Source of the DNA: a virus
Lineage: Duplodnaviria; Heunggongvirae; Uroviricota; Caudoviricetes
DNA length: 35,411 bases
Strand: one strand, 5' to 3'
IMG/VR virus record: IMGVR_UViG_2654587746_000006
Coordinates: 1-35,411 of that record
The translations under genes and the position numbers were made by a program. How positions within the stretch are numbered: position 1 is the stretch's first letter; every line of letters begins with the position of its first letter. The notes below the pieces were generated by a model. It was not told the origin of the DNA, made no database searches, and saw only the letters and a program-made list of their open reading frames with translations. This document shows, piece after piece, positions 2,621 through 35,411 of the stretch.

Positions 2621-2732
2621 AACTGAAGTTGCCCTGAAAATGAAATTTTTTTGCACAACCGCAGAACTTTTCCGCAGGGCATCAGTCTTAATTAGTGCCA
2701 CTGCTTTTCTTTGATGTCCCCATTTTGTGGAG

Positions 2733-2776
2733 CCCATCAACCCCGCCATTTCGGTTCAAGGTTGATGGGTTTTTTG
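2733..2776 (+). terminator. Rho-independent terminator downstream of ybjL
   Basis: Perfect 10-bp stem cccatcaacc / ggttgatggg around a 17-nt loop, followed by tttttt. Confidence 0.5.
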
Positions 2777-2855
2777 TTGCCTGAAATTTATGCCTTTTAA
2801 AATCATGATGTTAGAAGCACTGTTTTTTAATGATGGCGACAAATTGGCGGCAGCG

Positions 2856-3074
2856 TCAAAGAGAGAGCGCCACCTGTCCTGATTTCATTGGATGCGGCTG
2901 AACCGGATTTGACTCTTTTGGCGTTGCAATCGAACGAACAAAAGTTTCATGGGTAACAAAAGTATGGCTGCAGTTAATGTTCTGGCACTGGTTGTAACGC
3001 TCTTTGGTCAATGAAGATACCTGAAAACTGCTGCGAGTATGGGCGGCACTTCCACACAGTGGGCAAATCATCAT
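2856..3074 (-). CDS. ogr: Late-gene transcriptional activator, Ogr/186-B family zinc finger
   Basis: ~72-aa product from internal Met (MMICPLCGSAAHTRSS...CQNINCSHTF) with the C-x2-C...C-x4-C zinc-binding pattern of P2 Ogr; located after D as in P2. Confidence 0.85.
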   Translation of the reverse strand: MMICPLCGSAAHTRSSFQVSSLTKERYNQCQNINCSHTFVTHETFVRSIATPKESNPVQPHPMKSGQVALSL

Positions 3075-3164
3075 TTTTCGAGCTCTCCCCATTTTTGCTA
3101 AATTCACAATAATGATACCTCATTATTCCATTTTGAAAACTTAAAAGTTCTCCATTGCGAAGAA

Positions 3165-4265
3165 TCATTCCATTTCGAAATCATCAATCTTCACTTCAAG
3201 CTCCAGACTGGTCGTAAAACCATTATCCGGGCTGACAGTATGCGTCAGGGTGGTAATAGTCCATTCCGCATCATCTATCGGCTGTTTAAAGCCACTGACT
3301 TTCACTGGCATTTCCGTGTAGAGATCTGCCCGCCCTTCCGCCAGTTGTAGCGAGAATGACGCAACACCGCGTTGCAGGCGTTCCCACTGCATTTTCGCTG
3401 CCCGTTCGGCGTTGCTCCGGTTGGCATAAGTGCGATTAAGTACCAGCACGTTTTCATCCGTACCCACCAGGTAATCGCCCTGCTTCGCTTCCGGCTCTTT
3501 CTTCTGCTTTGCGGTCCTGCGCTTACGCTTCACCGTGGTGCTTTCTTTCTTCTCGGGTTCGCGGGTATGCAACCAGCTGGCAATTACGCCCGTATAGGCT
3601 CCGCGATCTGCCAGGGTAAAGCGGTGACTGTCGCCGTCCTTACGTGTGATAGTGATCACCGGCAGAGGTTTACCGCTGGCGCTTTTGCCCTGACCCTGCC
3701 GGATGAATAACAGATTGCCATTTTTCACCGACGCAATAGCACCGTACTGGCGCGCCAGCCGCATCAGAAAACTGCCGTCACTCTCATTAGTCTGGTCTAT
3801 ATGATCCACGGGTTTATCAGACAGGTCTTTACCGAGTGCCATCTTCAGCTTGTGACGCGCGGCTATTTCCTTCACCACTTCCCCGACAGTGGTCTTGTGC
3901 CACGATTTTTCACGGCGGGTATTCAGCGTTTCCCTAAAATCAGCACTTCGCGCCCGGATAGTCAGGCGATCCGGTGCGCCAGTGTGTTCAATCTCGTCCA
4001 CCGTGAATGCCCCTTTCGGGAAAAGCGGCTGCCCTTTCCAGCCCAGCGCCAGCGTAATAACCGCACCACGACGCGGCAGCACGATTTTTCCGTCGGCGTC
4101 GTCCAGTTCCAGATCAAGCTGGTCTGCTTCAAAGCCCCGGTTATCCGTCAGCGTCAGCCCCATCAGGCGGTTGTCCAGCACAGTGGTGATATCCCTGCCT
4201 TCAATACTGATGCTGAATGCCGGAGTTTTGTTGCCTTTGTTAAGCAGTTCAGAGCTGAAATTCAC
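3165..4265 (-). CDS. Tail protein, P2 gpD-like
   Basis: 366-aa ORF in the D position (after U, before ogr); recognised as gpD family; start overlaps U stop. Confidence 0.88.
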   Translation of the reverse strand: MNFSSELLNKGNKTPAFSISIEGRDITTVLDNRLMGLTLTDNRGFEADQLDLELDDADGKIVLPRRGAVITLALGWKGQPLFPKGAFTVDEIEHTGAPDRLTIRARSADFRETLNTRREKSWHKTTVGEVVKEIAARHKLKMALGKDLSDKPVDHIDQTNESDGSFLMRLARQYGAIASVKNGNLLFIRQGQGKSASGKPLPVITITRKDGDSHRFTLADRGAYTGVIASWLHTREPEKKESTTVKRKRRTAKQKKEPEAKQGDYLVGTDENVLVLNRTYANRSNAERAAKMQWERLQRGVASFSLQLAEGRADLYTEMPVKVSGFKQPIDDAEWTITTLTHTVSPDNGFTTSLELEVKIDDFEME

Positions 4266-8829: not shown

Positions 8830-10002
8830 TTACGCGCTGACCTGGCTGGCGAAATTCACCAGGTACTGATCGGTGATGCGCTGGCGCAGCATCAGATTTT
8901 CAAGTGGCGGCACTGGCGTGTAGTCGTAGTCGATGGTGAGTTTTCCGGCTTTCAGCGTGTCTTTGTCATTCACCGACTCGTCCAGCCAGCAATCACCACC
9001 AATGAGATAGCCCTGACTGACCAGGCTGCGCATTTTGGCGCGGATACCTTCGATAATGTCGCGGGCCAGCGACGGGTTCAGCGGTTTGTCCACCGCCCAC
9101 ATATGCGCTTCTGCCATCGTGTCCATCAGTACCTGCGCCGTGCGGGTGTAGTTTTCGAAGGCAAAGAGCGGGTCATCACTCAGGCAGCGGGAACCCCAGA
9201 AGCGGAAACCGTCTTTGCGGATAAGCGTGGTGACGTCGTTCTGGTTAAGCAGTCCCGCATCGGTTGCCGGGTCCTGCAGATCCCAGAACACATCAGCAGA
9301 AATTCCGGTGACACCGTTCACGCCCACGTTGGACAGGCTTTTGTGCCATCCGGTCTGCTCGTCAATTTTGGCGCGCAGACCAAGCGCACGCGCGGTGGCA
9401 TAAGCCGTTGCTTCGGCATTCAGCACCGTGTCCCAGCTGATAAAATCCGGCCAGATCAGCATCCCTTCACGCTGGCTGAAGTTTTCGCGGTAGGTAAGCA
9501 CTTCTTCCACTGTTTTGCAGCCATACGCCGACAGGTAAGCAAACCCGCGCAGGCTTTGCGCCACACTCAGCAGCTCAGTCGCTACGGCTTTGTTATCGTG
9601 ACCCGGCACGCCGAGAATGCGCGGTTTAACGCCGAGCTGTGACTGGGCAGATAACAGGGCTTTCATGCCTGTTTTTTTACCTTCAGCAGTCACTGCGCCG
9701 ATGATATTGGTTGTGGTTTCTTCTTCCGTTTCACCCTGCGGCACACGCACAACAACGGTCACGGGTTTTGCCTGGTCAGCGATGGCATCCAGCGAACGGG
9801 CCAGCGTGCCGGACTCACCCGCTTTACCACTGGCAGTCAGCACATCAGTGATCAGCACGGGTTTATTAAGAGGAAACATTTTTGCATCGGCATCATCGCC
9901 CGTGCAGACCATGCCCACGATGGCGGTGCTCACCGTGGTAATGGATCGGGTGCCTTCGTTGACTTCAACAACGCGCACTCCGTGGTGGTAATCCTGAGCC
10001 AT
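8830..10002 (-). CDS. Contractile tail sheath protein, P2 gpFI-like
   Basis: 390-aa ORF, first gene of the FI-FII-E-T-U-D block. Confidence 0.9.
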
Positions 10003-10325: not shown

Positions 10326-11459
10326 ATGAATCTACCATTTTCATTTATTTTAGCATTTTTCTGTATAATTGGTGCATTAGTCGCCTTCGGCTTACCGATA
10401 TTTAAATTTTTAGATGATGACATTCAGCAAAATCGTGCTAACGGTCTTGATGGAATGCGTTTTTATCTTGCATCATTCGTAATACTTCATCATATGGATT
10501 GCTCCTATTCATATTTTACAACCGGGGAATGGACCCCAATATCCCAGTGGCTTTTAACTATGGGAAAATATGGTGTAGCATTATTCTTCATGACAACAGC
10601 CTACTTATTTTGGGGGAAAATCAGGAACAAGAAAAATATTGATTGGGTAACCCTATATCAAAAAAGATTCCTTAGAATTGTCCCATTAGCTTTCTTTTGT
10701 TCATTCATGGGTATTTCTATACTTTTCATTTTCACGGAAAAAACCACATTAACTTTAACCACTATATCCAATATACTGTCCTGGTTTGATGGTAGCTTGT
10801 GGGATAATAAACCACCAGTAACGACTTTTCAGACTCCATTCATTGTGTTAGCCGGAGTTACGTGGACATTGAAATGGGAGTGGATGTTTTACTTTTCTCT
10901 TCCATTGCTATTTATTCTCAATAAAAAACCAATGGAACTGACTATTATTCTTTTTGCATTTTCGTTTTATTTATTGCCGTCCTTTACGAATACTGCATAT
11001 CTTTGGTCATATTTTTTTGCGGGGATGCTCTGCAGGGAGTTGAAAGAAAGAATTATCCTGTCCAAGACTAATGCAAATTATATTTTGATAGCTGCCATAC
11101 TGCTAACCTTTCTGTCAGCCCCTACATTATATAGCCCACCGGAGACTGCTTTCCTTGCTATTATTTTCTTTTGCATCATATCTGGAGCCGAACTCTTTGG
11201 CGCACTAACAACCAAAGCAGCCAAAAGATTAGGCGCGATTAGCTACAGTTTGTATCTCACACAGGGATTAGTACTTTTCCCAGTCTATAACTATCTGAAA
11301 TCCGCAAAAATGATGACTACTGGCCCCTTATTACTTTCGATACTTGTTATGACCTTCTTTGGCATTTGCCTGTTATCTACTTTCACTTATCATTTTATAG
11401 AATTACCGTTCATCAAAAAAATAAATAATAAATCATCAGACGGATTGCATAAAATTTAA
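10326..11459 (+). CDS. Acyltransferase family 3 integral membrane protein (O-antigen/LPS O-acetyltransferase-like); prophage cargo
   Basis: 377-aa polytopic membrane ORF with N-terminal signature NGLDGMRFYLASFVILHH (LDGxR...H of acyltransferase_3); visibly AT-rich; opposite strand to flanking tail genes. Confidence 0.85.
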   Translation: MNLPFSFILAFFCIIGALVAFGLPIFKFLDDDIQQNRANGLDGMRFYLASFVILHHMDCSYSYFTTGEWTPISQWLLTMGKYGVALFFMTTAYLFWGKIRNKKNIDWVTLYQKRFLRIVPLAFFCSFMGISILFIFTEKTTLTLTTISNILSWFDGSLWDNKPPVTTFQTPFIVLAGVTWTLKWEWMFYFSLPLLFILNKKPMELTIILFAFSFYLLPSFTNTAYLWSYFFAGMLCRELKERIILSKTNANYILIAAILLTFLSAPTLYSPPETAFLAIIFFCIISGAELFGALTTKAAKRLGAISYSLYLTQGLVLFPVYNYLKSAKMMTTGPLLLSILVMTFFGICLLSTFTYHFIELPFIKKINNKSSDGLHKI

Positions 11460-11726: not shown

Positions 11727-12323
11727 TCACTCCTCTGGTTTGCCAGGCCATTTGACATCAGGCGCTGTAGAAAAATCAACTGCATAAAGAGCGTCAAGAT
11801 AATCCAGCCATAGATTATATTGCGCCAGTTCGTCGCCTTTCAAACGCCCAATAGCCGCCTTTCCTGGCCACTGCTTACTATTTATAAACGCGTTAGCCCT
11901 GTCGATGCGGGATTGTTTTTCCGCTTCAGCGGCACCAACATTAGCAGCATGTTCTGCAGCGGTATCAGTTACCCATTTTTCACCATCCCACTTATCATAT
12001 GGTGTTGATGGAGCAATTCTGGTGTAGCCATCTCGAATCTGACCAATATAATCAATTGTCGCAGACTTTCCATCAGCGGTTGAATAAACCATCATTCCCC
12101 GATGATCTTCTTCCTGTTTCCAGTCGGTGCCAGTGAACAGAGGGACCTTTCCGGCAACGACCTCGCCCGGGTCAATATCTGTGGAGTTGCCAGGCATACT
12201 CACGCCGATATGGATATATTCATCTGACCAGCCGGTATACTCTCCCGTCACCGCATCATAATAAAAACAGCGAACATCACCCGGCTCTGCCGCCAGTCCG
12301 TCTGCATCGAAGACAGGTTTCAT
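11727..12323 (-). CDS. Tail fibre assembly protein (P2 gpG-like / Tfa)
   Basis: 198-aa ORF immediately downstream of the tail fibre gene, sharing one base between fibre stop and its ATG. Confidence 0.85.
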   Translation of the reverse strand: MKPVFDADGLAAEPGDVRCFYYDAVTGEYTGWSDEYIHIGVSMPGNSTDIDPGEVVAGKVPLFTGTDWKQEEDHRGMMVYSTADGKSATIDYIGQIRDGYTRIAPSTPYDKWDGEKWVTDTAAEHAANVGAAEAEKQSRIDRANAFINSKQWPGKAAIGRLKGDELAQYNLWLDYLDALYAVDFSTAPDVKWPGKPEE

Positions 12324-20258: not shown

Positions 20259-21317
20259 TTACGCTCCGGTTTCGGCTGCGGCGGCGCTGAAATCACCAAT
20301 CTGGATGTTTTCCACCAGTGCGGCGCAGCGGTAGTCCTCAACCACATAGGCTTCATTAACGGATTCAAAGTTTTCAATCCGGTCACGTTTCGGGTTGTCG
20401 ATAACTGAACGGCGGCGGGTGTCTTCCTGCCAGTAGATGGACAAGTTATCCAGACGGGTGATCAGCAGCGCATTCGGCGGGAAGAACGGCGCACGCACGG
20501 CCTGCAGACCGCCCATGCGTTTCTGACTGATAATCATATCGGCTGCCAGTTTTTCACTGTTTTCCTGCTCTTTGTTGACCAGCGGGAAATACTTGTCAGA
20601 CAGCAGTTCACGACCGCAAATCACCACCAGATCGTCATCGTCCTGGTAGACCACGTCGATAAGCTCATTGACCGCATCCATCACCACAGCGTCCAGGTTG
20701 GCATATTCGCCACCTTTCCCGACTTTCACCGCACCCGGTGTGGTTTCACCACCCGTGGTGGTGCTGCCCATGACGTGATCCGGTGCATCCTCACGGATTT
20801 TCTGCAGCCAGCCTTTATTCACATCCTGCAGCAGCGGGTTTTCGCTACGGTTGGAGGTTTTCGCACGCTTCACGCCGTTAAAGCCGATCATGATGCGGTC
20901 CAGTGCCTGACGTTTCACGATGGCGTCACGGATACGCACCTGGAAATCCTGAAACTTCGCCCACAGGTCCAGCTTCGCGTAGGTCAGTACCGTGTCAAAG
21001 TTGGTCTGCTCGCATTTGTATTCCACATCGACCATCAGCGTAGGATCGACAGGTTCACGCTCTTTCGCGGTGGTGTCAGTGGTTCCGGCAATGGTGCTAC
21101 CAACACCCAACCCCAGCAGCTGACCGGACTGCTCAGTCACTGGCGTGACGTTAATCAGCGTCAGGAAAGCGGCGGACTGCTGGATCTGGTCTTCCAGCGT
21201 CTGCTGTACAGACGGCTCCACGGTGAACTTGCTGGACAGTTCTTCAACTGCCACACCGTTCAGACGCGCCAGCTGCTGCAGGTAAGCGTTAAAAGCAAAG
21301 CGGGTATTCTTCTTCAT
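20259..21317 (-). CDS. Major capsid protein, P2 gpN-like
   Basis: 352-aa ORF between scaffold and small terminase. Confidence 0.9.
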   Translation of the reverse strand: MKKNTRFAFNAYLQQLARLNGVAVEELSSKFTVEPSVQQTLEDQIQQSAAFLTLINVTPVTEQSGQLLGLGVGSTIAGTTDTTAKEREPVDPTLMVDVEYKCEQTNFDTVLTYAKLDLWAKFQDFQVRIRDAIVKRQALDRIMIGFNGVKRAKTSNRSENPLLQDVNKGWLQKIREDAPDHVMGSTTTGGETTPGAVKVGKGGEYANLDAVVMDAVNELIDVVYQDDDDLVVICGRELLSDKYFPLVNKEQENSEKLAADMIISQKRMGGLQAVRAPFFPPNALLITRLDNLSIYWQEDTRRRSVIDNPKRDRIENFESVNEAYVVEDYRCAALVENIQIGDFSAAAAETGA

Positions 21318-21333: not shown

Positions 21334-22167
21334 TCAGCAATTGGTCAGAGTGTCAGCGGGGGCGTTACCGCCTGTTGCACGCTGGCGGTAGTCCTGGCGG
21401 CTGTCTTCATGACTCAGCTTATTCACCAGTTCTTTAAAGGCGGTTTGCTGCTCCTGCAGAGCAGTCTCCAGCTCAGACAGGCGTTCTTCCTGTTCAGCCA
21501 GGGATTTTTCGGTGCGTGTGCTCAGGTTCTGCTGCTCAGTGGCGACCAGCTCCACGGCCTTATGCACATCAGAGAACCGGGCATCGTCTGACTGCTCTTT
21601 TTTGGTGAACAGCGCCGTGACGCGGGCAAACAGGGATGGTTTGTCATCCTGGACTTCTTCCAGTTCGATCACCGTTTCCTCTGCAGCGGTAAAAAGATTG
21701 GCGGGATTCTGCTTGCGGTTTGCCAACGGGTTATGGGCTGCACTGGCGCTGAATGTCAGCATTTCCGTACCCAGACTGGCTGGATCATCAGTGGCAGCCA
21801 GGCCAACCAGGTAGGCTTTGCCCGTATCAGCGAACTTCGGGCTGACTTCCATAGAGGTGAATAATTTCTGGCCTTTTTTCACCAGCTCCACCAGGGACTC
21901 CGTTGGCTCAACGTCGGCATACAGCGCCATCTTGCCTGCCAGCGGGCCTTCCGTGATTTCTTCAGCAAACAGCGCCGTCACCTTGCCGTAGCGGTTAAAG
22001 GTGCTGTCCGGCAGATAAGACTTGATGTGCTCAAGGTTAATCAGCGCGGTATACACTGCGGGGTTGTAGCTGGCTGCCATCTGTTCCAGCCATTCACGCT
22101 GGATTTCGCGTCCGTCGGTGGTGGCACCTTCCACCCCGATGCGAAAACGCTTTGCTTTCACTGTCAT
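21334..22167 (-). CDS. Capsid scaffolding protein, P2 gpO-like
   Basis: 277-aa acidic, helix-rich ORF heading the capsid operon, divergent from terminase. Confidence 0.85.
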   Translation of the reverse strand: MTVKAKRFRIGVEGATTDGREIQREWLEQMAASYNPAVYTALINLEHIKSYLPDSTFNRYGKVTALFAEEITEGPLAGKMALYADVEPTESLVELVKKGQKLFTSMEVSPKFADTGKAYLVGLAATDDPASLGTEMLTFSASAAHNPLANRKQNPANLFTAAEETVIELEEVQDDKPSLFARVTALFTKKEQSDDARFSDVHKAVELVATEQQNLSTRTEKSLAEQEERLSELETALQEQQTAFKELVNKLSHEDSRQDYRQRATGGNAPADTLTNC

Positions 22168-22309: not shown

Positions 22310-24076
22310 ATGAACACCACACTGACACCCGCAGATCTCGATCCCCGTCGGCAGGCCATGCTGCTGTACTTTCAGGGATACCGCGTAGCCCGCATTGCTG
22401 AAATGCTGGGCGAGAAAGTTGCAACCGTTCACAGCTGGAAAAAACGCGACAAGTGGGGTGACTATGGGCCGCTGGATCAGATGCAGCTCACCACCGCCGC
22501 ACGCTACTGCCAGCTCATCATGAAGGAGCACAAAGAAGGGAAAGATTTCAAAGAGATTGACCTGCTGGCGCGCCAGTCTGAGCGCCACGCGCGGATCGGC
22601 AAATTTAACAATGGCGGCAACGAAGCCGACTTAAACCCTAACGTCGCCAACCGCAACAAAGGCCCGCGCCGTCAGCCGGAAAAAAATGTCTTCACCGATG
22701 AACAGATTGAGAAGCTGGAAGAAATCTTCCATTCCTCCATGTTCAACTACCAGCGCCACTGGTGGGAAGCCGGAAAAACCAACCGCATCCGCAACCTGCT
22801 GAAGTCACGCCAGATCGGCGCGACCTTTTACTTTGCCCGTGAAGCCCTGATTGACGCCCTGCTTACCGGGCGTAACCAGATTTTCCTTTCCGCCAGTAAG
22901 GCACAGGCCCACGTCTTTAAGCAGTACATCATCGACTTCGCCAAAGAAGTGGAGGTGGAGCTGAAAGGCGATCCGATGGTGCTTCCTAACGGGGCCACGC
23001 TTTACTTCCTCGGCACCAATGCCCGCACGGCCCAGAGTTATCACGGCAACCTGTATCTGGATGAATATTTCTGGATACCGAAATTTCAGGAGCTACGCAA
23101 AGTGGCTTCCGGTATGGCTATTCACAAGAAATGGCGGCAGACCTATTTTTCCACACCATCTAGTCTGACCCACAGTGCTTATCCGTTCTGGTCCGGTGCG
23201 CTGTTCAACCGTGGGCGCAACAAAGCTGACAAGGTGGACATCGACCTGTCCCACAGCAATCTGGCCCCCGGCCTGCTGTGCGCAGACGGGCAATACCGCC
23301 AGATAGTCACCGTGGAAGATGCGGTGCGCGGCGGCTGTAACCTGTTCGACCTCGACCAGTTGCGCATGGAGTACAGCCCGGACGAATACCAGAACCTGCT
23401 GATGTGTGAGTTCGTAGACGATCTCGCGTCCGTGTTCCCGCTCAGCGAGCTGCAGGCGTGCATGGTGGACAGCTGGGAAGTCTGGACCGACTTTCATGCA
23501 CTGGCCCTGCGCCCGTTTGGCTGGCGCGAGGTGTGGATCGGTTATGACCCGGCAAAAGGTACGCAGAACGGCGACAGTGCCGGATGCGTGGTGGTGGCAC
23601 CGCCAGCCGTGCCGGGCGGCAAGTTCCGCATTCTTGAGCGTCACCAGTGGCGCGGGATGGACTTTCGCGCCCAAGCTGACGCCATCAAAAAACTGACCGA
23701 ACAGTACAACGTGACCTATATCGGCATCGACTCAACCGGCGTTGGTCACGGGGTTTATGAGAACGTGAAAGCGTTCTTTCCTGCCGTCCGGGAGTTTGTC
23801 TACAATCCCAATGTTAAAAACGCCCTGGTACTCAAGGCCTACGACATTATCAGCCACCGCCGTCTGGAGTTTGACGCCGGGCACACCGACATTGCGCAGT
23901 CATTCATGGCAATCCGTCGCGCCACCACCGCCAGCGGCAACCGCCCGACCTATGAAGCCAGCCGCAGCGAAGAAGCCAGCCACGCCGATCTGGCCTGGGC
24001 AACGATGCACGCACTGTTTAACGAACCGCTGCAGGGCGAATCCGCCAATACCAGCAATATTGTGGAGATTTTTTGA
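22310..24076 (+). CDS. Terminase large (ATPase) subunit, P2 gpP-like
   Basis: 588-aa ORF divergent from capsid operon and followed by overlapping portal gene. Confidence 0.9.
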   Translation: MNTTLTPADLDPRRQAMLLYFQGYRVARIAEMLGEKVATVHSWKKRDKWGDYGPLDQMQLTTAARYCQLIMKEHKEGKDFKEIDLLARQSERHARIGKFNNGGNEADLNPNVANRNKGPRRQPEKNVFTDEQIEKLEEIFHSSMFNYQRHWWEAGKTNRIRNLLKSRQIGATFYFAREALIDALLTGRNQIFLSASKAQAHVFKQYIIDFAKEVEVELKGDPMVLPNGATLYFLGTNARTAQSYHGNLYLDEYFWIPKFQELRKVASGMAIHKKWRQTYFSTPSSLTHSAYPFWSGALFNRGRNKADKVDIDLSHSNLAPGLLCADGQYRQIVTVEDAVRGGCNLFDLDQLRMEYSPDEYQNLLMCEFVDDLASVFPLSELQACMVDSWEVWTDFHALALRPFGWREVWIGYDPAKGTQNGDSAGCVVVAPPAVPGGKFRILERHQWRGMDFRAQADAIKKLTEQYNVTYIGIDSTGVGHGVYENVKAFFPAVREFVYNPNVKNALVLKAYDIISHRRLEFDAGHTDIAQSFMAIRRATTASGNRPTYEASRSEEASHADLAWATMHALFNEPLQGESANTSNIVEIF

Positions 24077-25107
24077 TGGGAAAGAGTAAGAAAAACCGCG
24101 CTGCGGCGACGAATCAGCTCAAGCATAAAAGCCAGACTTCAGCCGAAGCATTCAGCTTTGGCGATCCCGTTCCTGTTCTGGACCGCCGTGAACTGCTGGA
24201 CTATGTGGAATGCGTACAGATGGACCGCTGGTATGAGCCGCCCGTCAGCTTTGACGGACTGGCACGAACCTTCCGCGCTGCCGTGCATCACAGCTCACCG
24301 ATTGCAGTAAAATGCAACATTCTGACCAGTACCTACATCCCTCACCCGCTGCTCAGCCAGCAGGCTTTTTCACGTTTTGTGCAGGACTATCTGGTATTTG
24401 GTAACGCCTACCTGGAGAAACGCACGAACCGCTTCGGTGAAGTTATCGCCCTTGAGCCTGCTCTGGCAAAATACACCCGACGCGGGTTAGACCTGGATAC
24501 CTACTGGTTTGTGCAATACGGTATGACAACCCAGCCGTATCAGTTCACGAAAGGCAGCATTTTTCATCTGATGGAACCGGACATTAACCAGGAGATCTAC
24601 GGCCTACCCGGCTATCTTTCTGCCATTCCGTCCGCCCTGCTCAATGAGTCCGCCACGCTGTTCCGCCGCAAGTATTACATTAACGGTAGTCATGCAGGCT
24701 TCATCATGTACATGACCGATGCTGCGCAGAACCAGGAGGACGTGAACAACCTCCGCAATGCAATGAAAAGTGCCAAAGGTCCGGGTAACTTCCGCAACCT
24801 GTTTATGTACTCGCCTAACGGCAAAAAGGACGGCCTTCAGATCATCCCTTTGTCAGAAGTTGCGGCGAAGGATGAGTTTCTAAATATCAAGAACGTGAGC
24901 CGGGATGACATGATGGCAGCACATCGCGTTCCGCCACAGATGATGGGGATAATGCCAAATAATGTCGGGGGATTTGGGGATGTGGAAAAGGCTAGTAAAG
25001 TATTCGTAAGAAACGAATTGATATCAATGCAAAAACGGATCAAGGAGATTAATGTCTGGTTAGGTACAGATATTATCGCATTTACAGAATATAACTTAGA
25101 TATGTAA
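24073..25107 (+). CDS. Portal protein, P2 gpQ-like
   Basis: 344-aa ORF overlapping terminase stop (ATGA); last ~50 codons look AT-rich by eye. Confidence 0.9.
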   Translation: MMGKSKKNRAAATNQLKHKSQTSAEAFSFGDPVPVLDRRELLDYVECVQMDRWYEPPVSFDGLARTFRAAVHHSSPIAVKCNILTSTYIPHPLLSQQAFSRFVQDYLVFGNAYLEKRTNRFGEVIALEPALAKYTRRGLDLDTYWFVQYGMTTQPYQFTKGSIFHLMEPDINQEIYGLPGYLSAIPSALLNESATLFRRKYYINGSHAGFIMYMTDAAQNQEDVNNLRNAMKSAKGPGNFRNLFMYSPNGKKDGLQIIPLSEVAAKDEFLNIKNVSRDDMMAAHRVPPQMMGIMPNNVGGFGDVEKASKVFVRNELISMQKRIKEINVWLGTDIIAFTEYNLDM

Positions 25108-25123
25108 TCGTCCCACAATACAA

Positions 25124-25145
25124 GGCAAAGAGCATACTCTTTGCC
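25124..25145. terminator. Bidirectional hairpin terminator between convergent portal and RT genes
   Basis: Perfect 9-bp stem ggcaaagag / ctctttgcc with 4-nt loop, between portal stop (25107) and RT stop (25157). Confidence 0.6.
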
Positions 25146-25156
25146 TGTGATTACAG

Positions 25157-26914
25157 TTATACTTTGCACCTCTTTGAATAATCTGCAATAATTTCCTCAA
25201 TACCATCAAAAATAACTTTAAACTTTTCAAAACTAATTGTTTTACAATTTGCCTTTATAACCTTTGTTGAAAACACATGCTTACCATATTCTGTTTTTGT
25301 ATCCGTATCATTAGATTTATTAAATGTCTTTCCATCAAGCACCGTTGATAGTACCGTGCTATCAAATAAATCCTCCATACAAGACTCTTTCCCTCCAGGA
25401 AGCAATGGTGTTAATAACAAATAGAGATTGTCAAATATGTGGGTATACCTTGCCTTACGAATAGTATCAACATCATTTGGACAATTTTTTACTTTATCCT
25501 TTAAGTGATTTAATAAATCTTTAGGGCCTGAGTCATTATCAAGAAGCATAATAACAGGGTGCTTTGGTTTAAATTTCTCGAACCTCTTTTTTTGTTCTTG
25601 GTATCTTAATATAAATCTTTTGAAGTCTGTAGCACCGCCAGAAATGTCAAGAAAATAGCTTGTTTTTTCAGTTGCTTTAAAAAAATTAACACGATACTCA
25701 TTTTTAGAGCTATCATCAGAAGAATTAAACAATAAAGGATATGAATTCGCCAATGACTTCAAAGCACACTTTAAATATACACGGTCTGTTTTACCCTCAG
25801 TGAGTATTGTTGGCATTTCCATTCCATGAAAATTTTTATAGTATAGAAAATAACTGTAGGCTTTTTCTCTCGAATTCAATTTTGCAGTGTAGTTTAATCC
25901 ATGATTTACACTTTGGTACTTTTCCAACTGTCTTGCGTTCTTTAGTTTTAAATTATTATATTTATCTATTGAGTCAATAAATCCAAAACGGCCTTCTAAT
26001 TTAGCACATGTACCTTTTTCAATCTTTCCTGATTCAGTAACAATAACAAAAGAACCATCTTTATAAAGAGAATGAGCCATGGCACGCGTTACTTTTGCAT
26101 ATTCTTTGCCAACATTCACTTTTTTATTAACAGTCAACCCAGTAACATCTTGTCGTGATGTTTTATAACAAACCCTTGTCTTTTTATCATTTATTTTAAA
26201 GCCAGCCTTTATAATCTCTTTAATTAAAGTTGGACTTAGGGTTACAGACTCTCCGCCAACATCAGCAATCTCTTTTGGAAATGTTTTTTTATTAGTTGAA
26301 AATGTAAGATCATCAGCATACCGTGAATAATTGCATCCGTATTTCTTTGCTAACTTTGATAATCTTATATCAAGAATTCCACTGATTAAGTTACTTATAA
26401 TTGGAGAGCATGGGCTTCCTTGAGGAAGTCCATTCTGAAAACATGCAATTTGTGCGATCGTTGTAGCAACAGTATTATTTAATCTAAAATCTCTGTTTGA
26501 TAAGAAAAAACCTCTAACACGTCCAAAATTAAAACTATCAAAATAATCCTCAAGGTCTATATTTAGTAGTAGCGTTTTACCTCTATGCCGTTCAGCATTC
26601 GTAATAATTGACTTTTCTTTTTCAAACCCATGAGATAAAACTGGATTAATATTATATTTTTTATAAATTTCCGCACGACATAAATATAAAACATCAGCTA
26701 ATCTACGTTGAATATCTTTGAGCTTAGTGGTAGGTGCTGATATGACTCTCGGCGCTCCGTTTTTTTTAGGGATAGTAAATTGTGTATACTGCGTTTCAGC
26801 TTTTAAACGATAAATAACATCCGTAAGAAAAGCAGTTTTAAGATTCAAGATACTAGCCAAATCTTGCCTGTTAGCAGCGTTTTGTAAACGTTCTAAAATT
26901 GATAGGGGTGCCAT
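25157..26914 (-). CDS. ret: Retron-type reverse transcriptase with C-terminal TOPRIM-like domain
   Basis: 585 aa; RT motifs NAERH (NAxxH), LLNIDLEDYFDS, QGSPCSP, YADD, VTG; C-terminal ~220 aa with TOPRIM-like Glu (ILTEGKTD) and DxD (LLDNDSG); AT-rich; preceded by msr/msd-like region. Confidence 0.9.
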   Translation of the reverse strand: MAPLSILERLQNAANRQDLASILNLKTAFLTDVIYRLKAETQYTQFTIPKKNGAPRVISAPTTKLKDIQRRLADVLYLCRAEIYKKYNINPVLSHGFEKEKSIITNAERHRGKTLLLNIDLEDYFDSFNFGRVRGFFLSNRDFRLNNTVATTIAQIACFQNGLPQGSPCSPIISNLISGILDIRLSKLAKKYGCNYSRYADDLTFSTNKKTFPKEIADVGGESVTLSPTLIKEIIKAGFKINDKKTRVCYKTSRQDVTGLTVNKKVNVGKEYAKVTRAMAHSLYKDGSFVIVTESGKIEKGTCAKLEGRFGFIDSIDKYNNLKLKNARQLEKYQSVNHGLNYTAKLNSREKAYSYFLYYKNFHGMEMPTILTEGKTDRVYLKCALKSLANSYPLLFNSSDDSSKNEYRVNFFKATEKTSYFLDISGGATDFKRFILRYQEQKKRFEKFKPKHPVIMLLDNDSGPKDLLNHLKDKVKNCPNDVDTIRKARYTHIFDNLYLLLTPLLPGGKESCMEDLFDSTVLSTVLDGKTFNKSNDTDTKTEYGKHVFSTKVIKANCKTISFEKFKVIFDGIEEIIADYSKRCKV

Positions 26915-26949
26915 ATCTAAAAATCAACCTTGATTATCAGTTAGGGTAG

Positions 26950-26962
26950 GCACATGTAGGCA
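26950..26962. repeat. Retron inverted repeat a2 (gcacatgtaggca on + strand)
   Basis: Perfect reverse complement of 27068-27080. Confidence 0.7.
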
Positions 26963-27067
26963 CTCTTACGCAAAGCATAGGACAGCCCAAGAATGGCTAC
27001 AAGGATGTCAGAAGGCGAATCCATCTAACATTTAGATCACTGATTGCGATACCACAACCAACAAATC

Positions 27068-27080
27068 TGCCTACATGTGC
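27068..27080. repeat. Retron inverted repeat a1 (tgcctacatgtgc on + strand)
   Basis: Perfect reverse complement of 26950-26962. Confidence 0.7.
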
Positions 27081-27159
27081 ATGCTTAAGCTACCATGATC
27101 ATTTAAGAATGTGAAGAACCGTTAACAGTTTTGAAAGAGCCAGATCATAGCATTGCGCG

Positions 27160-27190
27160 CGCTCGTATCCCCGCCACGCCTGCCCGCTTT
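27160..27190 (-). other. Candidate cos (cohesive-end) site of the P2/186-like phage
   Basis: Minus strand reads GGCGTGGCGGGGA..., resembling my recollection of P2/186 cohesive ends (GGCGAGGCGGGGAAAGCAC type); oriented toward the portal gene. Confidence 0.45.
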
Positions 27191-27225
27191 ATGTAGTGGT
27201 TTTCATGCACCTGCATGATCTACAC

Positions 27226-27250
27226 AAAAGCCCGCCAGTTCTGGCAGGCC
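27226..27250 (-). terminator. Candidate terminator of the SOS-controlled operon
   Basis: Imperfect GC-rich hairpin gcccgccag..ctggcaggc followed on the minus strand by tttt. Confidence 0.4.
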
Positions 27251-27383
27251 TTAGCAAAAACGATCCTCAAACGATCATGCGATCTCATGCGGCATAGACA
27301 TGCACCACAGAGCTAACGCCTCGCACAGCTCGTTGTTCAACCTTGCTGACGCCAGAAGCAAGTTCAGACGCCAGCAACGTTTC

Positions 27384-27617
27384 TTAATGCAGCCAGCTGT
27401 CGTCTTCCCACACCTTCTGCATAATTTTCATCACTTGCTTCCTTTCTTCGTCCAGTTGCAGTCCGGTCAGTTCCACACCGTTAGAGCTACCTTTGCGGAT
27501 ACGAATTACCGTTTTGGGATACAGGGGGCGCAGATTACGGTAAAGCTCGGATTCAAGGGCGTCTAGGGTAGACTGGCTAATCTTCTGCTCTTTATCGATC
27601 ATTATTTCAATGCGCAT
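27384..27617 (-). CDS. dinI: DinI-like protein (DNA-damage-inducible protein I family)
   Basis: ~78 aa from Met MRIEIMIDKEQ... with GAGGTG RBS; resembles E. coli DinI (MRIEV... WE..D.W); ORF track extends 24 codons upstream. Confidence 0.8.
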   Translation of the reverse strand: MRIEIMIDKEQKISQSTLDALESELYRNLRPLYPKTVIRIRKGSSNGVELTGLQLDEERKQVMKIMQKVWEDDSWLH

Positions 27618-27627
27618 AAAAGTCACC

Positions 27628-27816
27628 TCAACTGATGACATCCATTGAGCGGTTGTATTCGTGGGTTCTGATTTTTGCCATGAGTTCATCTGTTAGTTCA
27701 GAAACCCACTGTAAAGCCAGCCCCTTCTCTTCATCACTACACTCACTAGCCGCTACAAGCTTAAGAAAAAAATCAATGCGCTGGAGCTTCAAAGACTCCA
27801 AAAAATAGTCCTGCAT
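27628..27816 (-). CDS. Small hypothetical protein, first gene of LexA-box operon (possible Tum-like antirepressor module)
   Basis: 62 aa from Met MQDYFLESLK... with AGGAGG RBS 4 nt upstream; directly downstream of SOS box; overlaps dinI-like start by ~11 nt. Confidence 0.5.
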   Translation of the reverse strand: MQDYFLESLKLQRIDFFLKLVAASECSDEEKGLALQWVSELTDELMAKIRTHEYNRSMDVIS

Positions 27817-27857
27817 CTTTCCTCCTATGACACCACAAGAAATACTGTATACATAAC

Positions 27858-27877
27858 CACTGTTTATAATTACAGTA
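27858..27877 (-). promoter_or_regulatory. LexA (SOS) box overlapping a sigma70-like promoter
   Basis: CTGT-ttataatt-ACAG (27860-27875) fits CTGT-N8-ACAG; minus strand shows TTTACA - 17 nt - TACTGT -35/-10 candidates overlapping the box. Confidence 0.6.
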
Positions 27878-27969
27878 TATAATAATCTTACTGATGTAAA
27901 ACGTTTTTTTACGTTCATCAGCCTGATATGCCTGGTATTATTAAGAGCACGGATTGTTAACCCGCGTGA

Positions 27970-30384
27970 TTAATACAGGTTCCGCCACTTATCATCTTCC
28001 TGCAAACGCTGGTTCCGATAGAAGATACGCAGGCCTGCTCCTGACGGAATACTGCCACCGCGAAGGAGCAAATCGACCTCTTTCTCGCTGCCATCAAATC
28101 CTCTGGACTTCAGTTCATAGACGAGTTGCTGACGCTGATACTCTGTAATTCGCTGTTTGTAGTCTTTACGCCGTTTCGGTTTAACCAGGCGTAATCTTGC
28201 TGCCAGTTCCCGGCGCTCTTTTTTGCTCATACTGTGCAGGTAATCGTGCAACTCCTTGTCATCCATGCGGGTGATATCCGTTCTGGTATCCCCATCAGCT
28301 GATTTGTCTTTCCCTTGTTGGTTCAAATTTTCAGCAAGGGGACAGTTATTGCCACGAGTCCAAGGGGCGCAAGCGCCCTGGTCGGCTGCCGCCTCCTGAA
28401 CGTCAACGGCCTTACGAACCATTTTCCACTTCACTGCATGAGTGCAGATCTTGCCCTCTGCAATGGGTGACCAGATGCCATAAATACGAATACCGTGATC
28501 ACCATAGGCGGTCGGCTCTTCGTTGATTTCATAAGCGGTTCTGATCAAGTGATATTTGCGGGGAACCAACACGCCGCCCTGCTTCATAATGTAGGTGGCA
28601 AAACAGCCAGCATCAGCAGCAGCCAGAATGGCATCAAGACGCGGATCATCCAGTACCGGCGCACCTGCTTTTTTGTCACCCTGCTGCCTTGCCGCCTGAC
28701 CAGCCAGCAATCGCAGTTCACGGTAAGCCTGACGCCCCGGAATGCCAAAGAAGCGGAATTGCTGAACACGATGCAGAGACGCCCAGGCATTAACGTATTC
28801 AGCGTTATCACGCAGGGATTTACCCGTTTCCTTGCTGATCTCGCCAGCCAGACCACGCCCGTCAATGTTCTTACTGATGTATTTCGCGATGTAGCTTGTC
28901 GGCGTTCCTTTGCGCGGGTTAATCAGCTCAGACTTAAAGCGTGGCCCCGTGTTATTGCCCAGTTCCTCGCGGTCTTCACGGATGGCAAACTTACGCAGTA
29001 ATGCAGTGATGGCGCGGCGGTCTTTTTTACGTATGAAGCACATGAGATGCCAGTGCACAGTACCGTCATGATGCGGCTCAGCCACCCGCACGCCATACCA
29101 CCGCAATCCGGCTTTGTGCATCGCCTTACGAAATGCAGCAAACATGCCGACCAGATAATCACTGCTTTGTCTTACCGTCGCATTTGTCCAGGTCGGGTTT
29201 GGTCTGCCGTTATTGAGCGTGGAATGGAAACGTGACGGACAGGTGATGGTGTAGAAAACGGCGCAGTCACCGCGCATTTCCGCGATAAGCTCCAGACCTT
29301 TAACGCAGGCCATCATCTCATTGCGGCGATGTGCCGGGTTGCTGCTGCTGGCGTTTACCACATCTTCCATATCCAGCGTGTCTCCGTCTTCGTTCACCAG
29401 TTCATGAGAACGGAAAAACTCCAGCGACTTGCGGCGCTGCTCACGTTTATGCGTCACTGCTTCATAGCTGACATAGGGAGATGCTTTTTTGCTGACCAGA
29501 CAGACAGCACGCAACTGCTCTTCCCGCCATTCGCAACGCATCTTCCACAATTTTCGATACCACCAGTCGGCGCAAAGCATACGTGCCAGCGAACCCGGTA
29601 TGAGTTCATAGGGCACAGGTTTGCGGCGGTTTCTTTTCCGACGAAGTTTCTCAAACGCAGGCGGGATAACATCCAGACGCAGGGTTTCCGCAGCCACCTT
29701 TTCCCATGTCTTGCGGATTTCTTCTGGCTTAACGTCATCGGTGGCGTACAAATCACCACAAGCGGCCTCAAGACACATGCTCATATGCGCTGCTACCAGG
29801 GTGGACAGGCGTTTCACCTGATCCTGGCTCATTTCAGGCAGGATCAGCAGCCCCTCCAGCCCTTGATGGCTTGCCATAAAACGGAAAGAAACAGATAGCT
29901 GACTGTCACGTACACAATCCAGTCGCTCCAGACATGGCTTAATCGTCTCACGCAAATAGCGGGAATAAGCCTTTGGCCTGCCCAGGCTGCTGAAGTATTC
30001 GATACGTTGCATCAGCGGCTTGCTGATATGAGAAGGCTGGGCGCTGACATCTGCCAGAATGACCATGTCCGGGTTAAAACGCTGCTGCTCATGCGCCAGC
30101 TTTGCCCGGCTAATGAGCTTATCCTGCTCCATTTCGCGCTGGACAGGATCACGGGATTCATTAAAGAAATAACGCTCCCAGACCTGCTCACTCAGTGCCT
30201 CGCGGCGCAGTTGTTCCTGCTCGTTATCGGCAGCGTACAGAGTGATCAGGTTTGAAAGTGCAGACTCCGGCGCAACTTCCGCCGGATCCAGATAAGGGTT
30301 AATGGCCTTTTTCGGGCCGTTCCATGAAAATGCTGCGGCAGCCTCGTTAAAGCCGCTAGAGTTGCTCATATCGTCATGACTCAT
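27970..30384 (-). CDS. Replication initiation protein, P2 gpA-like rolling-circle nickase
   Basis: 804-aa ORF with HUH-type and tyrosine motifs (TVHWHLMCF; [10 protein letters not shown]); last gene of the early operon. Confidence 0.88.
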
Positions 30385-31238
30385 ACACGCACCTCGTACA
30401 CAGCAGAACTATCCACGCCACGCGAAGGATCAAATCCCATCCAGCAGCGCGACCCGGAAACAGCAATGATTTCTGTTGCAGATTTACTCTCGCCAGCTGA
30501 CACGCCGATGCTGCGTTTTGCCTTGATGTAGTGGTGAGTGAAATTGCGATACAGCGAACGGATCAGGGATGTGTCACTGTTAGAAACAATGACCGGATGA
30601 CCTTCTGATGATCGATATTCAAGAACGGATGCCAGGTGATACTGGTCATCTTCAGTGAAGCCGTCAGTGTGATAACCGGAAAACGTGCCGTCATACGGCG
30701 GATCGCAATACACCACATCCCCCGCCTTCAACATCGCCAGCGTTTCATCAAAGCTGGCGCAGATAAACGTTGCTCGCTGGGCCTTTTCTGCAAATGCGTG
30801 AATTTCTTTTTCAGGGAAATACGGATTTTTATAATTACCGTAGGGAATGTTGAAATGCCCGCTCTTGTTATAGCGACATAAACCACGGTAACCGTGACGA
30901 TTGAGATACAGGAAATATACCGCTTTCATGAAATCAGTAATTTCAGTTGAGTAATTAAACTCCTGCCTTATGTTGTAATAAGCTAGGTCACTGTTTGCTT
31001 CCTCAAACAAAGTTCTGGTCCGCGATATAAACGCCTCGCAATCAGCGGCAATCTTTTTATAGAGGTTGATTAAATCAGGATTAATATCCGCAACCAGATA
31101 GCTGGGGTAATCCGTCTCCATCATCACAGCACAGGAACCCGCGAAAGGTTCAACCAGTCGCGGGCCAGCAGGTAGGTATTTTTTCAGTTCGGACATAATT
31201 GCGGTTTTATTTCCCGCCCATTTCAGGATGGTGCTCAT
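30381..31238 (-). CDS. dam: DNA adenine methyltransferase (Dam-like, orphan)
   Basis: ~285 aa from Met [11 protein letters not shown]...; motif [11 protein letters not shown] and motif IV DPPY; stop overlaps A start; no adjacent restriction endonuclease gene. Confidence 0.88.
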
Positions 31239-31462
31239 ACAGCACCTCCGTTGTAATGTTTGCCTTTCAGCTCTGCGATTTCCTGACAGGTAATGCAAAG
31301 CTGCACTCCAGGAATGGCACGGCGGCGTGCTGGCGGAATTGGTGCTTCACATTCAATGCAAAGCACGCGAGACACGCCCGGTGTTTTGGCACGGGCAGCA
31401 CGGATATGGCGCTGGCGTTCTTCTTCAACGCGCTGCTGTACGAGATCCATTGCATCAGCCAT
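31235..31462 (-). CDS. DksA/TraR-family C4 zinc-finger protein
   Basis: 75 aa with CIECEAPIPPARRRAIPGVQLCITCQ; start overlaps upstream stop (TAATG). Confidence 0.8.
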   Translation of the reverse strand: MADAMDLVQQRVEEERQRHIRAARAKTPGVSRVLCIECEAPIPPARRRAIPGVQLCITCQEIAELKGKHYNGGAV

Positions 31463-33289: not shown

Positions 33290-33414
33290 GATGCAACATT
33301 CCTCGTTTAATGATGATTAATCAGGACGAATACGGATCGTTTGTATTTTGTGAACACCATAAACATACGATCGCGCAGTGAAATCGTCAAGATAAAAGTT
33401 CACTTGGAGTGACC

Positions 33415-33984
33415 ATGAATTTGGAGAAAGGCGGACGAGGCGCTATAGAGCGCATGGTAGAAGCTTATGGATTCAAGACTCGACAGGCGTTGTGCGATCA
33501 TTTAGGAATCTCTAAAAGTACACTCGCCACACGCTACATGCGTGACTCATTCCCAGCAGAATGGGTAATCCAGTGCGCCCTTGAAACAGGCACCTCGCTT
33601 AATTGGCTCACAACCGGGCATGGTTCAAAGCAAACTTCAGGTAATACAAATACTATGGAAGTTGCTAAATATGTATTATCTGATGGGGCCTTGTGTGAAG
33701 ACGGTTTTTATATTTTCGATAGAGAATTTCTACCGTCGGCATTCAAGAATCTTTTTGTAATCACAGATAATAATTCTGAATTTATTTGTGATAAGGAATT
33801 TGATGATATACGTGATGGTAAATGGGTAATAAGTATTGATGGCGAAATAACGATCCGTGACATTACTCGTTTACCCGGTGGAAGAATCTTCGTCGAGGGT
33901 GGAAACAGAGCCTTCGAATGCAAGATAGAAGACATTGAAATAATTGGTAAAATTATAAGTTTAACAGTCAAGTATGTTAAATAG
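33415..33984 (+). CDS. cI: Immunity repressor CI (186 type, no S24 peptidase domain)
   Basis: ~189 aa from ATG (MNLEKGGRGAIERMVEAYGF...ALETG..LNWLTTGHG); no Ser-Lys autoprotease motif seen; divergent from apl-like gene. Confidence 0.85.
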   Translation: MNLEKGGRGAIERMVEAYGFKTRQALCDHLGISKSTLATRYMRDSFPAEWVIQCALETGTSLNWLTTGHGSKQTSGNTNTMEVAKYVLSDGALCEDGFYIFDREFLPSAFKNLFVITDNNSEFICDKEFDDIRDGKWVISIDGEITIRDITRLPGGRIFVEGGNRAFECKIEDIEIIGKIISLTVKYVK

Positions 33985-34191: not shown

Positions 34192-34379
34192 CTTTTGCTT
34201 TTATATCTGCGCCTAAAATAAAAATGAGCCACAGGTTAACCGCAAAAGTTACATGCTCACATAGCAAAAAGAATAGCCTACTTCATTATGGCTTCAGTGA
34301 GATGTATGGTCGCAGGATTTCATACATTGACACTGGTTATACATACAGTAAAAATGCTCTCTATTGGAGGGCATTTTTT

Positions 34380-35411
34380 ATGGCTGTACGAAAACTCACC
34401 ACAGGAAAATGGCTTTGCGAATGTTACCCCGCCGGACGTAGTGGGCGTCGTGTGCGTAAACAATTCGCCACCAAAGGCGAAGCACTGGCTTTTGAGCGTC
34501 ACACGATGGAAGAAACCGAAGCAAAGCCCTGGCTGGGTGAATCAGTGGATCGTCGAACACTGAAAGACGTGGTTGAGCTATGGTTCAAACTACATGGTAA
34601 ATCACTGACTGCTGGGCAGCATGTCTATGACAAATTGCTGCTGATGGTTGACGCTCTGGGCAATCCCCTTGCAACTGATCTCACATCTAAAATGTTTGCC
34701 CACTATCGAGATAAACGCCTGACAGGTGAGATCTACTTCAGCGAGAAATGGAAGAAAGGAGCAAGCCCGGTCACCATTAACCTGGAGCAAAGCTATCTAA
34801 GTAGTGTTTTTAGCGAACTATCCCGCCTGGGCGAATGGTCGTATCCGAACCCACTGGAGAACATGCGAAAATTCACCATCGCAGAAAAAGAGATGGCATG
34901 GCTTACCCATGAGCAGATTGTTGAATTGCTGGCTGATTGCAAACGTCAGGACCCAATTCTGGCACTGGTAGTTAAGATATGCTTAAGCACAGGCGCACGT
35001 TGGCGTGAAGCCGTAAATCTTACCCGCTCACAGGTGACCAAATACCGAATTACCTTTGTAAGAACGAAGGGGAAGAAAAACAGAAGCATCCCTATCAGTA
35101 AAGAGCTTTACGAAGAGATCATGGCGCTTGATGGGTTCAATTTCTTTACAGACTGCTATTTTCAATTTTTATCCGTGATGGAAAAAACGTCTATCGTGCT
35201 CCCTCGCGGTCAACTGACACACGTTCTGCGCCATACGTTTGCGGCGCACTTCATGATGTCGGGTGGAAATATCCTGGCCTTACAAAAAATTCTCGGGCAT
35301 CACGATATAAAAATGACTATGCGTTACGCACATCTGGCACCGGATCACCTGGAAACTGCATTACGGTTTAATCCGCTGGCAACACTACCAACATCAATAG
35401 CAAGTTTTTGA
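34380..35411 (+). CDS. int: Tyrosine integrase (P2/186 family)
   Basis: ~343 aa from Met MAVRKLTTGKWLCECYP... with GGAGG RBS; catalytic signatures TGARWREA, HVLRHTFAAH, MRYAHLAPDH; stop codon is the last 3 bases of the window. Confidence 0.9.
   Translation: MAVRKLTTGKWLCECYPAGRSGRRVRKQFATKGEALAFERHTMEETEAKPWLGESVDRRTLKDVVELWFKLHGKSLTAGQHVYDKLLLMVDALGNPLATDLTSKMFAHYRDKRLTGEIYFSEKWKKGASPVTINLEQSYLSSVFSELSRLGEWSYPNPLENMRKFTIAEKEMAWLTHEQIVELLADCKRQDPILALVVKICLSTGARWREAVNLTRSQVTKYRITFVRTKGKKNRSIPISKELYEEIMALDGFNFFTDCYFQFLSVMEKTSIVLPRGQLTHVLRHTFAAHFMMSGGNILALQKILGHHDIKMTMRYAHLAPDHLETALRFNPLATLPTSIASF

Follow-up and report, generated by a model that had tools for sequence, protein, structure and literature searches.

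Phages P2, P4 and 186 have cohesive ends of 19 nt, and a 55-bp core is shared by the P2 and P4 sites (Ziermann and Calendar 1990, as cited in PMC5694545 and PMC9594776). According to the papers that summarize the work of Dodd and Egan (1996, Virology 219:115), the Ec67 and Ec86 retrons are both found in a 186-related prophage (PMC6868368, PMC5694545, PMC7826664), and the position between cosL and gpQ is regarded as a hotspot of foreign genes in P2-like phages (PMC5694545). The accessible part of Rousset et al. (2022; PMC9122126) describes a cos-proximal defence hotspot lying between gpA and gpQ of P2-like phages, with 1,650 arrangements, retrons included. As to the retrons of type I-C, their mechanism has been worked out for Eco2, and they are often encoded by prophages (PMC12916289).

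The window analyzed here, i.e. the whole stretch of 35,411 nucleotides, is classified on the basis of its sequence as a P2-family prophage of the 186/Fels-2 type. Over its full length it is matched most closely by 14 E. coli chromosomes (97.5–99.5% identity), and E. coli is the most likely host. On one side of the region of interest lie the genes for the major capsid protein (20259–21317, minus strand), the scaffold protein (21334–22167, minus), the terminase large subunit (22310–24076, plus) and the portal protein of 344 aa (24073–25107, plus); on the other side are those for the gpA replication protein (27970–30384, minus), a Dam-type methylase (30381–31298, minus), a 186-type CI repressor (33409–33984, plus) and an integrase (34224–35411, plus). 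The gene order bears out the proposal, made in a first-pass annotation, that a retron sits between cos and the portal gene. We regard it as very probable that positions 27151–27305 are the cos site of this 186/Fels-2-type P2-family prophage, that the hairpin found there is most likely a terminator, and that the DNA from about 24990 to 27150 is a replaceable cargo module.

The first-pass annotation had likened the core of a minus-strand stretch to P2/186 cohesive ends; this stretch, CGGGCAGGCGTGGCGGGGATACGAGCG, is the exact reading of 27186→27160. Alignment puts this core in exact register with the mapped ends of both phages: by BLAST, window position 27181 is matched to the final base of 186 (30624), and 27162–27180 to P2 cosR. 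The cohesive-end sequence predicted from this register, and from identity to Salmonella phage SEN8, is the 19-mer GGCGTGGCGGGGATACGAG (27180→27162, minus strand), to be compared with the annotated ends GGCGTGGCGGGGAAAGCAT of 186 and GGCGAGGCGGGGAAAGCAC of P2. In the P2 family the 19-mer is of the type GGCG(A/T)GGCGGGGAAAGCA(C/T). The window is identical to 186 in the first 13 of the 19 nt and differs in the last six, which read TACGAG here, AAGCAT in 186 and PSP3, and AAGCAC in P2 and P4. The start of the 19-mer, GGCG(A/T)GGCGGGGA, and the trailing (C/T)GCGCGC are common to the window and to the cos sites of P2, P4 and 186. When the window, 186, P2, P4 and SEN8 are aligned without gaps, all five share the succession ..TGCAT(T/G)AAAACC..AAGCGGGC(A/G), followed by the 19-mer and by (C/T)GCGCGC, beyond which similarity among them is absent. 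Within the 35.4-kb window the core GGCGWGGCGGGGA has a single match with zero mismatches; the other four matches have two mismatches each, and shuffled sequences give on average 1.74 matches at two or fewer mismatches.

The TACGAG variant has a counterpart in SEN8, a Felsduovirus, which carries the identical 19-mer at positions 1–19 of its record, annotated as 'putative cos site', and whose record terminates at the base equivalent to window position 27181. Among public contigs and phage records, SEN8 was the only one seen to end exactly at the 19-mer; none of the IMG/VR contigs containing it, whose termini served as a proxy for physical ends, stops at the site, and no experimental mapping of ends of the TACGAG variant was found in the accessible literature; the SEN8 feature is only 'putative'. 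PSP3 was also considered as a carrier of this variant and rejected, its cos being the same as that of 186.

The 19-mer is preceded, on the minus strand, by a conserved right arm of about 125 bp (27181–27305), delimited both by conservation among 116 unique relatives and by the five-phage alignment. It contains four YGCAT repeats (27300–27304, 27287–27291, 27277–27281 and 27205–27209, minus strand), along with one inverted copy (27212–27216). In P2 and 186, TGCAT occurs at −124 (−123 in P2), −111, −101 and −29 from the 19-mer; at −124, −111, −101 and −29 the window reads TGCAT, CGCAT, CGCAT and TGCAT, respectively. The succession AAAACC…AAGCGGGC of the P2, P4 and 186 right arms is likewise present, while the window differs from them in having additional GATC sites and in the two repeats that read CGCAT. 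Towards the portal gene the site extends for about 7–11 bp and no more: this remnant of the left arm, CGCGCGC(AATG), spans 27151–27161 (minus strand), and conservation ends there, at the cos-side junction of the cassette. The four position-conserved YGCAT repeats and the core common to P2, P4 and 186 are thus all contained in an island of about 155 bp, 27151–27305. The island lies between the portal gene (Q/W, read towards cos) and the accessory genes of the right end, an order also found in 186 and P2. Homology, position and architecture together support the view that this is a bona fide P2-family cos site. The terminase of this phage would recognize the right arm of about 125 bp through its position-conserved YGCAT repeats, and staggered nicks flanking GGCGTGGCGGGGATACGAG would produce 19-nt 5' cohesive ends.

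The transcription unit that reads towards cos from the right (27384–27875, minus strand) consists of a LexA box, an ORF of 62 aa and a DinI-like gene, in the same order as in annotated relatives. The box, CTGTTTATAATTACAG (27860–27875), is a perfect CTGT-N8-ACAG placed between the gpA stop codon and the 62-aa ORF (27816→27628, minus); the DinI-like gene (27617→27384, minus) matches Pfam DinI with E = 6.6e-23. Since a perfect LexA box and a DinI-like gene occur together, the name 'SOS operon' seems a reasonable one. In the NC_001317 annotation, the SOS operon of 186, near the right end of the genome, is composed of p95 with its LexA site, tum, orf97 and the terminators t95a/t95b; its p95–tum part resembles the arrangement in the window, being a LexA-boxed, DinI-like operon read towards cos, with a hairpin before the cohesive end.

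In the window, this hairpin has the form GCCUGCCAG-AA-CUGGCGGGC followed by UUUU (27226–27252, minus strand), and is a probable intrinsic terminator of the DinI-like operon. The GC-rich stem occupies 27249→27230 and the UUUU 27229→27226. The minus strand folds with a dG of −20.3 kcal/mol (z −3.55), against −10.9 kcal/mol (z −1.46) for the plus strand. The U-tract, UUUUGUGU, includes only four consecutive U, and a scan for consensus terminators did not list the hairpin at 27226–27252. The same scan gave a plus-strand site at 27184–27199, which is weak, overlaps the conserved AAGCGGGC core and is regarded as due to chance. A hairpin with TTTT had been noticed at this place in the first-pass annotation; it is indeed present, downstream of the LexA-boxed operon and on the same strand, 134 nt past the stop codon of the DinI-like gene. 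The further suggestion that this terminator marks an edge of the insertion did not hold, as the hairpin sits within the cos island, beyond the 19-mer as seen from the cassette, in the right arm.

The stem is well maintained in the relatives: its positions are paired in 90% of cases over 80 unique variants, compared with 28–54% when the 3' partner is slid along the alignment. The consensus stem of the relatives, GCCCGCCAG/CTGGCGGGC, is perfect, and that of the window contains one G·U pair. Covariation is sparse, with few compensatory changes and mostly simple conservation. The loop varies (AA, TT, GA and others); of the 80 variants, 63 have TTTT as the tail and 10 have TTTC.

These features can be read in two ways. 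The hairpin most likely terminates the LexA-controlled operon, but it could serve packaging instead of, or besides, termination, because the hairpins of 186 and P4 occupy the same position without a U-run. In its stronger form the second reading takes the hairpin as mainly a structural element of cos, involved in recognition by terminase or by a host factor, or in bending, with an incidental T-run. We judge this unlikely, though it has points in its favor: the hairpin lies inside the packaging island, between the distal and the proximal YGCAT repeats; in 186 and P4, a GC hairpin without a U-run stands equally far from the 19-mer, the window hairpin aligning with this second hairpin of 186, while the annotated t95b lies further upstream (161–188 bp from the cos cut, against 46–70 bp for the window hairpin); and changes in the stem are mostly absent rather than compensatory. 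Against it, TTTT or TTTC is kept in 73 of the 80 variants while the loop varies freely, and the strand of the incoming operon is the only one that folds strongly. Moreover, the cos site of P2 is functional and lacks the hairpin and U-run that the window has, and P2 is alone in the set in having a neighboring gene, old, transcribed away from cos. Terminator function is favored because the one phage without the hairpin is the one whose neighbor does not read into the site. As a terminator, the hairpin would stop SOS-driven transcription from crossing cos into the retron; retron and SOS operon are on the same strand, so that any read-through would be sense transcription of the retron.

The conservation of the island across relatives bears on whether the site is still in use. 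The 19-mer GGCGTGGCGGGGATACGAG is found, exact, in at least 120 IMG/VR contigs. Column by column, the 116 unique relatives are highly conserved between 27305 and 27155, with a collapse on either flank; in the alignment of relatives conservation is lost 7–11 nt past the 19-mer. Since the island is conserved while DNA only a few bases away is unrelated, selection on the cos site is indicated. An inactive relic in a defective prophage, its similarity to P2 and 186 reflecting ancestry only, would account for the six positions at which the 19-mer differs from the mapped ends, for the absence of physical ends from the data and for the frameshifted or truncated portal genes of some E. coli relatives at this locus. 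It is, however, quite improbable that the site is such a relic: in more than 100 distinct relatives the 19-mer and CGCGCGC are invariant, and the right arm strongly conserved, beside unrelated DNA; the window has intact ORFs for terminase, portal, capsid, scaffold, tail, gpA, CI and integrase; and sequenced Felsduovirus phages have the same island.

On the portal side of this presumably working site, the length of the DNA is highly variable. The 19-mer and the portal stop codon are 138–3528 bp apart in 86 relatives that carry this 19-mer, and 2054 bp apart in the window. Nine relatives have empty sites, with a spacer of 138–161 bp, a size similar to the annotated gaps of P2 (167 bp) and 186 (176 bp); in these relatives the portal gene is followed by its canonical terminator, GCGCCCCGGCAGCATTCTGCGGGGCGC + TTCTTTTTT. 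All cargo types diverge directly past the 19-mer and CGCGCGC, and the window shares four more bases, AATG, with some empty relatives: for these reasons the cos-side junction is placed at 27151–27155, where the likeness to P2, P4 and 186 stops.

The occupants of this slot are diverse. Authentic Ec67, with an RT 100% identical to the PDB Eco2 chain, is found in one locus (L054) beside the identical 19-mer and CGCGCGC, and an Ec67 relative, 86% identical, in another (L124). Other retrons are of type II-A with an NDT effector, Ec86-like (L026 and L048), of type I-A with ATPase and HNH (L060 and L034) and of type IX (L087). Non-retron cargo, in annotated E. coli and Salmonella relatives, includes TIR, DprA, AIPR, HIRAN, RES, STAS-like, SecB and HNH genes. 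The cassette-replacement model put forward in the first-pass annotation is borne out by this comparison, as retron-free relatives differ from the window in what they carry between cos and portal.

In the window, the slot is taken by a retron whose RT–Toprim fusion protein of 585 aa (25157–26914, minus strand) belongs to type I-C, Ec67 family. It matches the PADLOC model RT-Toprim_I-C with E = 2.7e-223 (residues 5–583) and the PDB entry 'Retron Ec67 protein' with E = 5e-217 (residues 4–579). The amino-acid identity to Ec67 is only 57%, compared with 100% for the RT of L054. Identity of the retron with Ec67 itself was therefore rejected, and it is classified as a further, distinct member of the Ec67 type I-C family. 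The ncRNA, msr–msd (26950–27080, minus, fold z −4.1), is bounded by a perfect 13-nt inverted repeat (a1, 27080→27068; a2, 26962→26950). It has the features of a type I-C ncRNA, namely its location upstream of the RT, the a1/a2 repeats and the GGCAGAUUU priming-G CAGA context, described for Ec67 in PMC6868368. The msr resembles that of authentic Ec67, GGCAGAUUU directly following a1 in both, while the msd differs. No curated retron-ncRNA or cos-RNA family was matched when 24900–27900 was searched against Rfam at E ≤ 1.

The distance between cos and a1, estimated at about 80 bp in the first-pass annotation, is 81 bp when measured from the 19-mer. Between the cos core and a1 lies a leader (27081–27150, minus strand) which is specific to the cassette: it is not conserved in non-retron relatives, and is identical only in the one locus with the same retron (L119). 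The retron promoter is presumably located within 27081–27150; a consensus promoter scan from cos to a1 found no site that scored 9 or more out of 12.

At the other end, the retron converges on the portal gene, and the two are separated by a 49-bp gap, from the portal stop (25107) to the RT stop (25157), that contains a hairpin of 10 pairs (25123–25146). The retron (minus) strand gives this hairpin a better T-rich tail than the portal strand does, and it is on the minus strand that the consensus terminator scan lists it. The hairpin is carried by the cassette: the one found past the portal stop differs with each cargo type, and all of them are unlike the terminator of the empty sites. The first-pass annotation had the cassette run exactly from cos to the portal hairpin. 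The cos side of this statement stands and the hairpin exists, but the exchanged DNA runs on into the portal gene.

Several observations locate this second boundary, within a zone comprising the last 30–35 or so codons of the portal gene (24990–25107, plus strand), which travel with the cargo. GC content drops from 0.51 to 0.32 at about 24990. Compared with a relative (L096) that is 99.3% identical over portal codons 200–300, identity breaks at about 24957–24999, and is about 70% from there to the stop codon. The last 28 or so codons differ with each cargo, and a conserved motif of the portal protein, FGDVEKASxVFVRNEL, flanks the module edge. From codon 317 to the stop, pairs of loci with the same cargo are 96% identical, even where the bodies of their portal genes are only 87–92% identical; the window and the locus with the same retron (L119), for instance, are 90% identical in the body and 100% in the tail. 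Conversely, pairs with different cargo are 57.5% identical in the tail, and 59% even when their bodies exceed 97%. Because the identity of the portal tail follows the cargo and not the portal body, the exchanged module is taken to extend from about 24990 to about 27150, the break on the portal side being located, by alignment, near 24960–25000.

In the window, the proposed module would comprise a promoter/leader, the type I-C retron (msr–msd and RT-Toprim), its own convergent hairpin and its own portal C-terminus. Such modules could be swapped among related phages by homologous recombination in the cos island on one side and in the portal codons up to about 316 on the other. We consider it somewhat more probable than otherwise that the cos island is a fixed anchor for recombination, placed between two cargo slots, and that every cargo swap rewrites the C-terminus of the portal protein, with a crossover at about codons 296–316. 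If so, the portal tail would be either freely replaceable or co-adapted with the DNA next to cos. That the retron, as a 'potential transposable element' in the sense of an early idea, inserted itself beside cos by RT-mediated transposition, rather than being recombined in as part of a cassette, is highly improbable. In favor of it, the DNA is foreign, low in GC and sharp-edged, and several different retrons occur at this one site. Against it, many cargos other than retrons use this slot, and the junction falls at the edge of the cos core in all cases; a diverged but homologous portal 3' end is part of what is swapped and co-varies with the cargo, as homologous exchange would predict; and the cargo replaces the spacer of about 140–160 bp instead of being added to it.

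A retron cassette bounded by cos is already known, and its recognition in the first-pass annotation is a correct rediscovery. As in the Ec67/Ec86 prophage, known to us from the summaries that cite its description, the retron is transcribed away from cos and towards the portal gene, with which it is convergent; with respect to that account, the lineage of the window differs in that the ancestral portal terminator is not retained, the cassettes bringing their own hairpin and tail. The present analysis extends the 1996 observation on Ec67 and Ec86 to over 100 relatives and to retrons of four or more types, and locates in this prophage the cos site, the boundaries of the retron cassette and the predicted cohesive ends. 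The junctions at 27151–27155 and about 24990 delimit DNA that may be swapped without touching the packaging signal, which may be useful in the engineering of P2-type phages or cosmids and in the automated delimitation of defence cargo. The least documented points are the portal tail borne by the cassette and the layout of two slots around cos, and both are modest additions. No statement on a cassette-borne portal tail, or on rewriting of the portal C-terminus, was found in the accessible literature, in which Dodd and Egan (1996) is represented by citing summaries.

The second slot lies between the stop codon of the DinI-like gene and the cos island (27306–27383) and is empty in the window. The variable content beside cos, often made up of defence genes or retrons, is a trait that the window shares with the hotspots of P2-like phages and P4-like satellites outlined in the accessible part of Rousset et al. 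(2022); there, gpA–gpQ is treated as one hotspot, whereas by our alignments the island of about 155 bp separates two cargo slots, the one on the portal side occupied and the one on the DinI side empty. Of 81 loci, 24, the window among them, have 202–204 bp between the DinI-like stop codon and cos; in others the interval reaches 3208 bp. In 186, the corresponding accessory slot, between the DinI-like gene and cos, is filled by orf97. It is also filled in four E. coli and Salmonella relatives (L006, L008, L009 and L010), in three of which annotated genes are found there, encoding a DUF2971 protein, a hypothetical protein and a HEPN protein.

The portal-side slot, the replaceable interval between the cos core and the portal gene, accommodates retrons of several kinds in related prophages. 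Adjoining an identical predicted cohesive-end 19-mer and the CGCGCGC that follows it, authentic Ec67 was found along with retrons of types II-A (Ec86-like, composed of NDT and RT genes), I-A (RT, ATPase and HNH) and IX, all of them transcribed in the direction away from cos. Authentic Ec67 occupies this slot at L054, L082 and L095, and further retron loci in the same position are L124, L026/L048, L060/L034 and L087. Compared with the Ec67 of L054, the msr half of the window's retron ncRNA (26950-27080) is closely similar, CATGTAGGCAGATTTGTTGGTTGTG..ATCGCAA.CAGTG, while its msd half is unlike that of Ec67 and identity between the reverse transcriptases is only 57%.

On the opposite side of the slot, the last ~28-35 codons of the portal gene (24990-25107) are GC-poor. 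Within the set formed by loci L011-L130 and the window, this tail co-varies with the cos-adjacent cargo, and not with the remaining portal gene, its identity being 96% in pairs sharing the same cargo versus 57.5% in pairs with different cargo. A second variable slot (27306-27383) lies between the cos island and the DinI-like gene, at the position taken by orf97, an accessory gene, in phage 186. It is empty in the window and holds up to about 3 kb in relatives, where its content includes DUF2971 and HEPN genes. Upstream of the DinI-like gene and a 62-aa ORF, a LexA box is found at 27860-27875 (CTGTTTATAATTACAG, a perfect palindrome), the only zero-mismatch instance of CTGT-N8-ACAG in the whole window.

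Within the cos region, YGCAT repeats (27205-27304) are located at -124, -111, -101 and -29 relative to the cohesive end, and an inverted copy is present at -36; these positions are common to the window, P2, 186, P4 and SEN8, and the repeats are candidate terminase recognition elements. Nowhere else in the window are GATC sites clustered as densely as in this region (27132-27290), where a stretch of 150 bp contains 5 of them. Two of these, located at -96 and -85 relative to the 19-mer, are conserved in over 90% of 100 unique relatives, whereas P2 and 186 lack them. Among the prophage's own genes is one for a Dam-type methylase (30381-31298), and the P1 pac site is under methylation-dependent control; by analogy, one may speculate that cos is controlled by methylation as well.

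Elsewhere in the prophage, an Acyl_transf_3 family gene (10326-11459, plus strand), flanked by the tail sheath (8830-10002) and tail-fibre assembly (11727-12323) genes, looks like another cargo position, and is possibly a lysogenic-conversion gene, coding for instance for an O-antigen acyltransferase. Both flanking tail genes lie on the opposite strand. A host-type, YbjL-like permease gene (935-2620, plus strand), featuring an Asp-Al_Ex and two TrkA_C domains, adjoins the gpD end of the prophage, and the left prophage/chromosome junction should therefore fall at about 2620-3165. The original Ec67 element was reportedly mapped near 19 min, the location of ybjL.
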